Source of the DNA: a virus | Strand: one strand, 5' to 3' | DNA length: 64,000 bases | IMG/VR virus record: IMGVR_UViG_3300010401_000001 | Location: 1-64,000 of that record | Translations under genes and position numbers: made by a program | In this document: positions 36,194 through 41,156 of the stretch, in pieces | Numbering within the stretch: the first letter of the stretch is position 1 | How the letters are laid out: each line of letters begins with the position of its first letter | The notes under the pieces: generated by a model | Told to the model about the DNA's origin: nothing | The model's input: only the letters and a program-made list of their open reading frames with translations | Database searches by the model: none

Positions 36194-37568
36194 AGATCGA
36201 AGACGGCATGACCACCGAACAACGTGCGGTGCAGGATAGCCTGGAGGCCAAGGCGCGCGACCTTGCCAGGACGCTCGACAGGTCGCTCAACCCGGCGATG
36301 CGGAATCCTCGCGACAAGGAGAAGCGCACCGTCGGGTTCGCGCTATTGATCTTCGCGTTCGGCGACGCGCCGCAGCCGGCGACCTGGATCAGCAACGCGG
36401 ATCGCGGTGACATGATCCATGCGGTCGAGGAGTGGCTCGAGCGCGCGAAGGCGCGGACGTGAGCGCCGCCTTCCACCGCGCGGTAGCGCTCGACACCCGC
36501 ATCAGCGTTGCGGTCGCCGAGCTCAGCGTCGGGATGCTGATCGACCCGCGGCTGTGCGCGCGGCTCGGCATCGGCGCCGAGCTCGACCAGGTCGTGGCGA
36601 CGCTGCAGCGTAACCTCGACACGCTGCGGGCCGAGCTGCGCCGCATGACCGACGACCCGTATCCGCAGCAACCAGGCGAGAGAGGACCGACGACATGAGC
36701 GACGATAGACCGAGCATCGCGGAGCTGAAAGCGAGCATGGACGCCGCAGACCCGGCGCCATGGTACTCGAGCACAAGCCGATACCAGTCAGACTGCGTGT
36801 TCACCGGCGGACCCGATGCGGCAGTCAACGGAGATGCCCGCGTTGTGGTTCAGGCCAACCCAAACTTCCCGTATCGCGGCAACCTGGATGGCATCGTGGC
36901 AATGCGGAACGCCGCGCCGGTGCTGCTCGAGATCGCAGCGGCTGCGCTGGCGTTGAAGCAGGCTGGTATCGAAGGTGACGAGGTGATTCGTCTGATGAAC
37001 GCCGCAACCACGGCGGATGAATATAGTGCAGCCTGCGCGTTGGCTCCGCGCGTCGAAGAGAAAAGACGTGACGCGCTGCGCGCTCTTGATGTTGCACTGT
37101 CCAAGGTGCGACCGTGAACTCGGCGCCGCTCACCAAGTCGTCGGCCGAGACCGTTCAGACGGTTGAGCACCATCACCTGAGCCACCGGCGCAACGTGGCC
37201 GCCGAGCCGTGCGATTTCTGCGGCGCAGAGGTAGGCCGTTCATGCCGACGGAGGCAATGGAACGCAGCCACCCGTAGCTACAAGCCGGTGATTGGCAGCC
37301 GGGTGCGCGCGCCGCACATGACGAGGTCGGCCCAGTGAAGGTCGACCTCGACGACCTCGAGCACAAGGCTCGATTGCAGAACCACGGCGTGCTGTGCGCT
37401 GAGCCGCCTTGTTGTTGCTGCGCGCCAGTAACTATTGCGCTGATCGCTCGCATCCGCGAGCTCGAGGCCGCTGCGCGCGAGGTCGCAGATGCTCCTCACC
37501 GACATGCTCAGGCCGGCCGCATCGGAATCATGCGGTCGGTGCTCGACAAAGGCGTGGTGTTGCCGTGA
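36190..37568 (+). other. Run of coupled small hypothetical genes: 36190-36462, 36459-36698, 36695-37117, 37114-37338, 37335-37568
   Basis: Overlapping start/stop codons. Confidence 0.7.
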
Positions 37569-40500
37569 CGCCGCAACTTGGTCTGCCGCCCGGCCGCCGG
37601 CTCGGCTGCTTCGTGCTCCGCGAGCGTTTCGACCAGGGCGGCTTCGGCGCGATCTACCTCGCCGACCAGCCGCCGCTCGGCCGCCAGGTTGTCGTGAAGG
37701 TGCTGCACCAGCGAGCCGACGTCGGCGCCGCGGCGCTGGTGCGCTTCGACCGCGAGGCCAAGCTGGCCAGCAAGCTGGACCACCCCTTCGCCGCGCATAT
37801 CTACGCCTCCGGGATCGAGCCAGACGGCCTGATCTGGATCAGTATGGAGCTGGTCCGCGGCGTCACCCTGAAGCGCTGGCTGGACCAGCATGGTGGCCGG
37901 ATGCCGCTCGACGTGCTCGTGCCGCTGTTCGAGCGCATCTGCAACGTCGTCCAGGTCGCCCACGAGCGCGGCATCGTCCACCGCGACATCAAGCCGGCCA
38001 ACGTGATGGTGGTCGAGCGCGCCGGCGAGCTCCTGCCCAAGCTCGTCGACTTCGGCCTCGCCAAGGCCATCGGAGAAGTCGCGCCGGCCATGCTCGCTGA
38101 ATCGTCCATGCAGATCGAAGATACCCAGCTCGTGAGCTGCTCGAGGTCGTCCGTGATGCTCGGCACCCCGCCGTACATGGCCCCCGAGATCTGGGCCGGG
38201 GCCGAAGCCGGGCCGGCGAGCGACGTCTACGCGCTCGGCGTGGTCGCGTTCCAGGCCCTGACCGGGCGGTCGCCGTTTCTCGGCTCCGGGCCCGCCGAGG
38301 TAGGGGTGCAGCACGTCACGGCGGAGATTCCGACCGTCGGCGACGCGTACCCGGCCGGGCTCGATGCCGTCTTCGCGCGCGCTCTCGCCAAACATCCCAT
38401 GGATCGATACGATAGCCCGCTCGAGCTCGCTGCCGCGCTGCGCGAGGTGGCCGATGCGCGGATCGCGGCGCAGGTCAGGACTGCGGCGCGCGTCTGGGCC
38501 GACCGGGGCCGGCCCGCCGATCTGCTCTGGCGCGGCTCGGCGCTCGAAGGTATCGACGGCTGGACCCTGGAAACCGGTCGCGAGCTGTCGAGCACGGAGA
38601 TCGCCTTCGTCGCCGCGAGCCGAGATGCCGAGCTCGAGGCTGAGCTCGCAGGTGCGCGCCGTCGACGCCGCACAAAGTGCATCGGTACGGCGATCGCCTC
38701 GGTGATGGCCGCGATGGGCGTCGCGCTGTTCCTGGGCCGCGCCACATATGAGACCAGGCTCGCGCAGCAGCGCGCAGTAGACGCCGAGCACGAGCGCGCC
38801 GTCGCGGAGATCGCCGCCGAGGTCGAGCAGGGCCGGGCCGCGTTGCTAGCGGGGGACTACGCCGGCGCACGGCAGCACCTCGGAGAGGCATGGCGCATGG
38901 GAGACCATAGCCGGACCACGGCGTTCATGCTGGCGCGCGCGGAGCAGCCCCTGCGAGCCGAGCTGGCCAGGCTCCCGGCGGTCAGCGGCCGGATGTGGGC
39001 GGCGAGCTGGAGCCCGGACGGCAGCCGGATCCTCACCGCTGACGACCGCGCCGCGCAGATCTGGGACGCCGACACCCACCAGCGCCTGTTCACGCTGCCG
39101 CATCACGACACGGTGTATGACGCGCGGTGGCTGGACGGCGGCCGGCGGGTGGTCACGGCATGCGGAGACGGTGCCGTGCGGATCTGGAGCGCGGAGACCG
39201 GCGAGCTTGTGCGCGAACTTCGGCCGCGGTCCGGGTCGCTGCAGCTCGCACGGGTGGCGGCAACGCTGAATGGCGAACTGATCGCAGCGATCGACGATCG
39301 GGGCGCCGCGGCAGTTGCGTGGAGCGCCGTGACCGGTACCGAGCTCGTCGACATCATGCTGGACGGCGCCGAGTGGACTTCGCTCGCGTTCAGCGCTGAT
39401 GGCCACTGGTTAGCGGCCGGCGGCGGCGACGTGGTGCGCGTGATCAGCACCGAGACCTGGCGCGCCGTGGCGACGCTCAGTGGGCCCGGCATCCACGCGA
39501 TCGCATGGGATCTGACGGGGCCCCGGCTGGCGACCGTCAGCGCACTTGGTGACGCGTCGATCTGGAACGTACCGGCCGGCACCCGCGCGCGGCACCTGCG
39601 CGACGTTGGACCGCCGATCGAAGCCGTGGCGACGTCGCCTGACGGGCGGTTCGTGGCGCTGGGCGGACGCGACGGATCGGAGCAGGTGTTCGACGCGGTC
39701 ACGGGAAAGCTGATGAGCACCGGCCGCATGCGGGATCGCATCCTGTCGCTCCGGTTCGACGCGCGATCGCAGATCATCGCGATCGCAGGAGCGGACGGAA
39801 CTGCGGAAGTGATCGAGGCATCGACCGGACAGCCGATCGCCGTGCTCAGCGGTCCGGCCGCCATCCTCCGCATGGTGAGCTTCGATCCAGACGGCCGGCG
39901 TGTGGTCGGCGCGTCGTGGGACGGCACGGCGCGGATCTGGGACGCGCGCGCGCCGTATCAGCGCCAGCTCGGCGCACCGATCGCCGCAGGTTGCGGCCTG
40001 GTCGGCGGCGCCTCCCCGGACTCCCGCGTCGTCGCGATCGCCTGCCCCGGCTATCGGACCCGCATCGCAGATACTGGCGCCGGGATCGCGCTCGCCGATC
40101 TGCCCCCCGTGTCCGCGCCGGCTGGATTCGATCCGGTGTTCCCGGCCGTGTCATCCGACGGATCGCTGGTCGCGATCGCGCGCGGCAACGCCGCGGAGCT
40201 TCGCGTGCTGCCCGGTGGCATGACCGTTCGCGTCGCGATGCACGGTGCGCCGGTCACCGCGATCGGGCTCGGTGCCGGCGACGCCGCCGGCGCGATGGTG
40301 AGCGGCGGCGCGGACGGCTCGGTGATGATCACGTTTCCCGGAGCAGACCAGGTCGAGCTCGATCCGGCCACCGCCGGGATCGACGCGATCGCCATGCTGG
40401 ATCGCGATCGCGTGTTTGCCATCGATGCCCGTGGCCACGCGCGGCTGCTCGATCGCAGCGGCGTGCTCGCTGATCTCTCCATGCCGGCCAGGATCCGGAT

Positions 40501-40972: not shown

Positions 40973-40982
40973 GGTAGGGTAA

Positions 40983-41156
40983 ATGATGAAGCAAAAACCG
41001 AAACAAAAACTAGCACTTCGACACGAAACCATCCGCCAGCTGGAGGCGCTCGACCTGCGCCGCGCCGTCGGTGGTGACGGCGCGCCGCTGGCGTTCGACA
41101 CCGGGCAGATCCACTGTGGGACGAGCGTCGCGGCAGCGACGGCCGGCGGAGGGTGA
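40983..41156 (+). CDS. RiPP-precursor-like peptide (57 aa; below the ORF-track cutoff)
   Basis: MMKQKPKQKLALRHETIRQLEALDLRRAVGG|DGAPLAFDTGQIHCGTSVAAATAGGG: KLxLxxETIRxL leader plus double-Gly site. Confidence 0.8.
   Translation: MMKQKPKQKLALRHETIRQLEALDLRRAVGGDGAPLAFDTGQIHCGTSVAAATAGGG

Follow-up and report, generated by a model that had tools for sequence, protein, structure and literature searches.

Why should a phage carry a gene for a receptor-like serine/threonine kinase directly followed by a gene for a small peptide with a double-glycine leader, and could the second product be a signal for the first? This question is raised by the virus record IMGVR_UViG_3300010401_000001 (G000; a soil phage genome of 89,855 bp with direct terminal repeats), of which the first 64,000 nucleotides (64 kb; GC content about 67%) were analysed as one stretch, called the window in the following. 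An earlier note on this DNA had read the two genes as a candidate peptide-signalling system, in which the phage borrows maturation and export from its host and senses the released peptide by its own kinase. Our comparisons support the view that kinase and peptide function as one unit, and they identify the phage pair, by its sequence relationships, as one copy of a massively paralogous module of Kofleriaceae (myxobacteria) rather than a phage invention. Regarding function, we propose with a probability of roughly 40% that the peptide is exported and then sensed by the propeller of its own kinase. Positions of all features are collected in Table 1.

Table 1. Features of the kinase-peptide locus and its surroundings, and two host loci used for comparison
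Feature	Position	Strand	Basis or description
Hanks-type Ser/Thr kinase gene, 1135 aa, stop-free	37565..40972	+	kinase domain, membrane helix, helical stalk, double WD40 propeller
Kinase catalytic domain, residues ~10-300, predicted cytoplasmic	37592..38464	+	Pkinase match, invariant catalytic residues
Predicted transmembrane helix, residues 372-390	38678..38734	+	hydropathy, family conservation, low pLDDT
Tandem WD40 propellers, residues 466-1125, predicted extracytoplasmic	38960..40939	+	WD40 match, model, Foldseek
Peptide leader, residues 1-31	40983..41075	+	basic N-terminus, LxLx(K/H)x5L, Gly-Gly
Peptide core, 26 aa (DTGQIHCGTS...), and stop	41076..41156	+	contains family-invariant Cys
Small phage ORF chain 5' of kinase	36190..37568	+	ORF list, GC by codon position
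Perfect 21-bp inverted repeat, 10-nt loop	41168..41220	.	occurs once in 89.9-kb genome
Tyrosine integrase gene	30460-31602		
LanB/LanC-associated precursor loci	L176 (G002:C92) 2962-3153; L179 (G002:C408) 1659-1826		

The kinase protein matches the Pfam families Pkinase (PF00069; 114.4 bits, cut-off 31.7) and WD40 (119.8 bits, cut-off 27). The residues K45, E64, H139-R140-D141, N146, D162/G164 and P207-E208 do not vary across a family alignment of 79 sequences, and by these motifs the kinase is catalytically intact. A single hydrophobic 19-mer starts at residue 372 (Kyte-Doolittle value 2.15), right behind the stretch RRRRR; both the arginine-rich patch and the hydrophobic segment are kept at the equivalent position throughout the family, including long variants that carry an insert between kinase domain and helix. 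In the AlphaFold2 model (mean pLDDT 87.5), the kinase domain is followed by two long helices and a stalk of helices, and residues 466-1125, most of them with pLDDT above 90, form about 56 strands. At the hydrophobic segment the long helices are interrupted and pLDDT is low. The top Foldseek matches are double WD40 propellers, namely 2ymu (E 5e-35) and Apaf-1 (3sfz, E 2e-30). From the positive-inside rule and the arginine-rich flank we infer a topology with the kinase domain in the cytoplasm and the propellers in the periplasm. The idea that the phage kinase might be a phage-specific derivative of a STAND protein with the NTPase domain deleted was discarded: the short form of about 1,100-1,200 amino acids is the usual chromosomal form, and the long variants retain the same membrane helix.

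The kinase gene starts with a GTG that shares bases with the TGA of the ORF before it (GTGA); this ORF closes a chain of small phage ORFs. At its other end, an ORF of 57 codons (40983-41156) begins 10 nt after the kinase TAG (ending at 40972), and the spacer contains GGTAGGG. These junctions were read directly or follow from the translation, and the description given by the earlier note, i.e. an intact one-helix kinase with a WD40 region, coupled to small phage genes and followed by a double-glycine peptide ORF, proved accurate.

The leader of the encoded peptide is basic and amphipathic and carries no hydrophobic signal. It meets the rules for double-glycine leaders, with G30-G31 at positions -2/-1, the hydrophobic I17, L20, L25 and A28 at -15/-12/-7/-4, and the acidic D24 at -8, and this pattern is repeated in 19 aligned relatives. 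Leaders with the motif LxLxKx5L that end in Gly-Gly are described for class I lanthipeptide precursors by Walker et al. (PMC7268733), and the phage leader fits this motif of class I LanA leaders. The corresponding model NF038153 (lant_leader_L1a) gives 13.9 bits with the phage peptide, which is below the cut-off of 22 (E 0.045); 11 of 19 family peptides match it at E <=1 (best 7.2e-5). In the core, one cysteine is invariant across the 19-member alignment, mostly with a threonine or serine 4-7 residues before it; the phage core has T39 and C45. The family consists of precursors of 55-65 amino acids with a short variable core and one invariant cysteine.

Evolutionary comparison is possible with L182, a 13,441-bp IMG/VR contig from a sister phage that covers the 3' end of the kinase gene, the peptide gene, the inverted repeat behind it and the downstream genes. 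Between the two leaders there are 5 synonymous and 2 non-synonymous changes (dN/dS 0.11), whereas the same stretch yields dN/dS values of 0.8 and 2.0 in the other two reading frames. For the 26 codons of the core dN/dS is about 1.2, a value that rests on small numbers (2.5 synonymous and 7.5 non-synonymous changes). A soil metagenome contig across kinase, peptide and inverted repeat differs inside the ORF only by a 3-nt indel, and 1-nt indels start just past the stop codon. Among the public runs listed for this locus there was no RNA data set, and the aligned contigs came exclusively from DNA of soil and rhizosphere. We regard the peptide gene as real by these sequence signatures, because low dN/dS of the leader is confined to the annotated frame, a homologue (P0123) is 88% identical, and about 50 related peptides were listed from the host loci that we fetched.

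Homologues of the kinase number more than 2,000. Outside phages, the best of them reach 54-55% full-length identity, and some bear the name Kofleriaceae. A scan of species genomes yielded two Kofleriaceae loci, and in the genomes concerned the peptide has 24 and 39 matches. Of 20 regions fetched by way of the peptide, 15 have a homologue with kinase, helix and WD40 repeats in full length (41-46% identical) as the neighbouring upstream gene, in the same orientation. A second count was started from the kinase in order to avoid ascertainment via the peptide; it comprised 25 kinases with their 3' end on the contig in five genomes that are Kofleriaceae by their record titles (G001, G002, G067, G098, G101), and one kinase at a contig end was excluded. 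A family peptide is found downstream on the same strand in 23 of the 24 evaluable kinase genes; one kinase gene lacks it. The coupling is tight: in 9 of 26 pairs the start codon of the peptide gene runs into the stop codon of the kinase gene (offset -1, ATGA-type), and in 23 of 26 the distance is at most 40 nt. Within the family, the peptide profile matches in 20 of 61 genomes of an even sample and is strongly expanded in a few, such that some Kofleriaceae genomes hold at least 15 copies of this autonomous operon of two genes.

Because the pairing is conserved in nearly all evaluable host kinase genes and recurs on contigs of a sister phage lineage, the sequence data support kinase and peptide as a functional unit, as the earlier note had proposed. 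The affiliation with a paralogous host family and the type of the leader, which is that of class I lanthipeptides with LxLxKx5L and Gly-Gly, had escaped that note; its assumptions of a functional unit and of reliance on host export are supported. No paper describing a pairing of a Hanks-type kinase with WD40 repeats and a Gly-Gly peptide was found in a full-text literature search of incomplete coverage.

The host modules themselves vary in their surroundings. No third gene recurs in their flanks; among the neighbours are FHA proteins, a histidine kinase, toxin-like proteins and a transposase. As some host modules lie beside FHA proteins, such a partner was considered for the phage as well and rejected, the FHA domain being absent from the whole phage genome. 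Some host modules (L098, 4052-9172; L103, 4072-5850) are situated directly upstream of large toxin-like genes, whose products are a protein of 1706 amino acids with an eCIS core domain and a protein that ends in a WHH/colicin-DNase domain. Kinases of more remote kinship occur as well, combined with other Gly-Gly peptides that are rich in cysteine. One example is L113 (G002:C74; 6942-11493), where a distant kinase-like ORF of 1081 amino acids is followed by five tandem peptides with Gly-Gly leaders and the common core start GCETTSYTTE. In L005, a duplicated GNGxGCPG core is found.

If the peptide is to leave the cell, it needs a route. The domains C39 (PF03412), ABC_tran (PF00005), LANC_like, Lant_dehydr_N and Radical_SAM are absent from the whole 89,855-bp phage genome, and the earlier statement that the window holds neither exporter nor peptide-modifying enzyme thereby extends to the complete record. 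The flanks of the host modules contain neither a recurring C39 exporter nor LanB/LanC genes. Two of the host genomes (G001 and G002), on the other hand, encode 7-8 C39 domains, 3-6 LanB and 3-7 LanC genes. In G002, two loci associated with LanB/LanC contain precursors with LxLxKx5L/Gly-Gly leaders and Cys/Thr-rich cores with multiple cysteines. One machinery for modification and export may serve many dispersed precursors. As the phage genome has no such genes, the phage would have to rely on those of its host, and maturation and export of the peptide in trans by host enzymes appear plausible from the gene content. The product of host maturation would be a peptide of 26 amino acids, possibly with one ring between Thr39 and Cys45.

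Based on this dataset, we hypothesize the following sequence of events. In an optional first step, the precursor would gain one Thr-Cys thioether ring from host LanB/LanC, enzymes whose own precursors have this type of leader. It would then be cut after Gly-Gly and exported through C39-peptidase ABC transporters of the host. The mature peptide would bind the propeller of the cognate kinase and thereby switch phosphorylation in the cytoplasm. The phage copy could let an infected cell or a lysogen add a channel of its own to the host signalling family, or tap into that family.

The pattern of divergence bears on this proposal. Between the phage copies, identity amounts to about 97% in kinase residues 1-540 and about 75% in the propellers, and to 94% in the leader and 81% in the core of the peptide. 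A pair of host orthologues (L104/L105; G002:C54 and G001:C11) displays 94% in the kinase part, 76-79% in the propellers, 90% in the leader and 43% in the core, with dN/dS of 0.34 for the leader and 0.47 for the core. Such parallel divergence of propeller and core is what a ligand-receptor pair would be expected to show.

Several observations weigh against sensing of the peptide by its own kinase, or against the setting that we propose for it. Synonymous divergence between the host orthologues L104 and L105 follows the same course as protein divergence (dS 0.12-0.25 in the first 500 codons, 0.35-0.70 in the propellers, 0.14 in the leader and 0.86 in the core), which suggests a mosaic by gene conversion or exchange of segments among paralogues. 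Since synonymous divergence is also raised in propellers and core, recombination mosaics explain the parallel divergence equally well. In a windowed analysis of the kinase, dN/dS does not exceed 1 in any long window. Some paralogues have propellers that are 76-82% identical, yet their cores share only 24-48%. The correlation of core and propeller distances is weak and confounded by physical linkage (Mantel test, rho 0.18, p about 0.02). The conserved threonine about 5 residues before the cysteine, encoded beside a kinase, would fit an enzyme and its substrate too. Finally, a search of 138 genomes of the family for a prophage relative, with the gene downstream of the module as query, returned none, and the host assignment is by names of homologues and GC content only.

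Peptide pheromones with Gly-Gly leaders and membrane sensor kinases are well known from ComC/ComD/ComE and BlpC/BlpH/BlpR, and nisin is sensed by NisK/NisR. The present locus resembles these systems in that a small gene for a Gly-Gly-leader or lanthipeptide precursor adjoins a gene for a membrane sensor kinase, in that the C39-peptidase ABC exporter may be encoded elsewhere (export being predicted here), and in that the leader is conserved while the mature part diversifies along with the sensor part. However, the phage-type sensor combines a Hanks-type Ser/Thr kinase with an ectodomain of two WD40 propellers and is no polytopic histidine kinase; no HisKA/HATPase protein or response regulator recurs beside the modules, and the neighbour of the phage peptide is the Hanks kinase. 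In addition, at least 15 pairs occur per genome, the lineage is Gram-negative, one copy resides on a phage, and sensing of the ligand is putative. Regarding the receptor, PknD of M. tuberculosis has the order kinase, single membrane helix and beta-propeller (NHL), and the phage kinase shares this order of domains, with the differences that its propellers are WD40 instead of NHL and that a dedicated peptide gene lies downstream. The tandem propeller fold is shared with Apaf-1 and 2ymu, but sensors of the Apaf-1 type are cytosolic and have an NTPase domain.

The peptide in turn is reminiscent of class I lanthipeptide precursors (Bacteroidetes type, pinensin family; PMC7268733; NF038153) by its leader motif, its Gly-Gly end and the Thr/Ser and Cys in its core, and the same leader type occurs at LanB/LanC loci of the same host genomes. 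It differs from them by a score under the NF038153 cut-off and a single cysteine, and LanB/LanC are missing both beside the kinase-linked copies and in the phage.

A phage-specific use of the signal may be conceived, in which the matured peptide leaves lysogens or infected cells via host exporters, and the phage kinase reads its level at the cell surface and, through phosphorylation, biases lysis-lysogeny, induction or superinfection exclusion. We consider this a long shot, drawn by analogy. It would amount to a kinase-based counterpart of arbitrium (AimP/AimR/AimX), built from a host signalling module, and as such it is speculative. The likeness to arbitrium, and to other systems by which phages communicate or eavesdrop, consists in a temperate phage that encodes a small peptide of the secreted type together with a candidate receptor. 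However, where AimP has a Sec signal, the leader of the phage peptide is of the Gly-Gly type; where AimR is a cytoplasmic TPR protein that binds DNA, the candidate receptor here is a Ser/Thr kinase of the membrane; the module is of host origin; and a role in lysis-lysogeny is conjectural here.

Signalling by peptides and receptor kinases is a known logic in plants and, with histidine kinases, in Gram-positive bacteria. If the peptide is a ligand, Kofleriaceae would possess a large family of private channels, each made of a peptide and a receptor kinase, a logic that we have not found described for Hanks-type kinases. The phage pair, with two genes, a defined ectodomain and a core of 26 amino acids, would then be a compact and self-contained model, suited to examining the ligand hypothesis and the question whether host peptide signalling is exploited by phages.

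Among the alternatives, the one that survives best is that the kinase acts on the peptide as an enzyme on its substrate. It would phosphorylate the core Thr/Ser as a step of maturation, leading to a phospho-peptide or to dehydration towards a thioether as in LanL, LanKC or the class V LanK, and the propeller would serve localisation or gating. The tight 1:1 coupling of the genes, which often overlap, agrees with this, as does the usual spacing of Thr/Ser 4-7 residues ahead of the invariant cysteine. The kinase domain is generically similar to those of lanthipeptide synthetases (NF038150, 74 bits; NF038151, 38 bits), and kinase domains that phosphorylate precursors are an established precedent (PMC10604976). 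These scores, however, are far under the cut-offs (650 and 575 bits, respectively), and only the kinase part of the protein aligns. The architecture of LanKC/LanL, i.e. lyase, kinase and LanC-like cyclase, is not found, as the C-terminus consists of WD40 repeats, the protein has no lyase or LANC_like domain and the phage has no LanC. Furthermore, the conserved propeller of 660 amino acids on the other side of the membrane helix would be left without a role. We rate this alternative as unlikely; it would be of interest in its own right, since a kinase that modifies the peptide would represent a new kind of peptide-maturation enzyme.

Alternatively, the peptide may be an effector, such as an antagonist of the bacteriocin or lanthipeptide type or a surface-active compound, with the kinase sensing the state of the envelope, neighbours or prey and controlling production or immunity; the phage copy would then be a weapon gained by lysogenic conversion. 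Bacteriocins and lanthipeptides typically have Gly-Gly and LxLxKx5L leaders, some host modules adjoin polymorphic toxin genes (WHH nuclease, eCIS-core protein), and the core evolves fast. Conversely, the cores are short, neither cationic nor amphipathic, and have a single cysteine, the pair is accompanied by no immunity-like or transporter gene, and at least 15 separate pairs per genome would be unusual for toxin loci. A role as effector appears quite unlikely to us.

A passenger would be a host module captured by illegitimate recombination, with no role in the phage. Full-length relatives of the kinase are overwhelmingly chromosomal, and its rarity in viruses is in line with such an origin: none of 50,697 GenBank phage records covers at least 80% of the protein, megablast and tblastn searches against GenBank phages gave no relative of the locus and only matches to the kinase domain at up to 36% identity, and the best 80 matches in IMG/VR are likewise confined to the kinase domain (up to 33% identity), with no further full-length relative. 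Scans of viral contigs with P0001 and P0003 and of metagenome contigs with P0123 returned no matches. Nevertheless, a sister phage contig of 83,108 bp holds both a kinase that is 85% identical (P0003) and a homologue, at 89%, of the gene that follows the module. The module is intact in these phage variants, and dN/dS against L182 is 0.31 in the 3' part of the kinase gene, in addition to the low value of the leader; the sister phage copy has, by these ratios, diverged to 85% under purifying selection. The gene is also built into the chain in which phage ORFs overlap, and its distance to the peptide gene is compacted to 10 nt. As the best non-phage homologue is only 55% identical, and as a sister phage retains kinase and downstream gene, the pair was, by these comparisons, not acquired recently. 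Near-identity to a host gene, as in a recent passenger, had been named by the earlier note as a finding that would speak against its reading; this is not what was found, and a passenger role in general is improbable.

There is only a slim chance that the locus serves prophage defence or superinfection exclusion, with a kinase that phosphorylates host or phage proteins like the single-gene defence kinases PD-T4-6 and Stk2 and with the peptide as its regulator: the gene lies between integrase and lysis genes, in the accessory part of a temperate phage genome, and matches the PADLOC models PD-T4-6 (up to 221 bits) and mad6 (165 bits), but these matches span the generic kinase domain only, an exported-type peptide and an extracytoplasmic propeller would remain without explanation, and the host paralogues, instead of sitting in defence islands, are scattered between genes for housekeeping and signalling.

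Regarding the genome as a whole, the direct terminal repeats indicate that it is complete, and genes for integrase, sheath, baseplate and tape-measure protein characterize it, by gene content, as that of a temperate, contractile-tailed, myovirus-like phage. Helicases, an exonuclease and a DNA methyltransferase are also part of the gene set; tail sheath, tape-measure protein, baseplate J and an amidase are encoded on the minus strand. A relative of 58.6 kb (G065; IMGVR_UViG_3300005330_000020; loci L146-L148) has about 90% nucleotide identity and a sheath that is 96% identical. It spans the equivalents of about 47.1 kb through the terminus to about 23.0 kb, such that the region of the module lies outside of it. 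Its circular permutation relative to the record fits a genome that is terminally redundant or circularly permuted. The gene behind the module also has homologues on an NCBI/Logan contig of 86,448 bp (P0127, 88%) and on a contig of 61,408 bp (P0129, 55%). No kinase from these two contigs is among the best 120 kinase homologues, and they may represent phage relatives without the pair.

The small ORFs upstream of the kinase have no family matches. The first two of them (36190-36462 and 36432-36698) overlap by more than 4 nt, and the following ones (36695-37117, 37114-37338 and 37335-37568) by 4 nt each. Downstream, the inverted repeat marks the boundary at which the kinase-peptide unit ends and the next operon (41227-43608) begins. 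It encloses the sole match to a sigma-70-like promoter in 34-44 kb (TTGACA-16-TAGATT). In L182 it is 97% conserved, with one substitution in the loop (TTGACA to TTTACA) and an insertion of 1 nt in the right arm. The last gene of the operon behind it (43234-43608) has a weak match to an Arc-like ribbon-helix-helix repressor (phrog_6506, E 7e-6), and its product may, as far as this similarity can be trusted, bind the inverted repeat.

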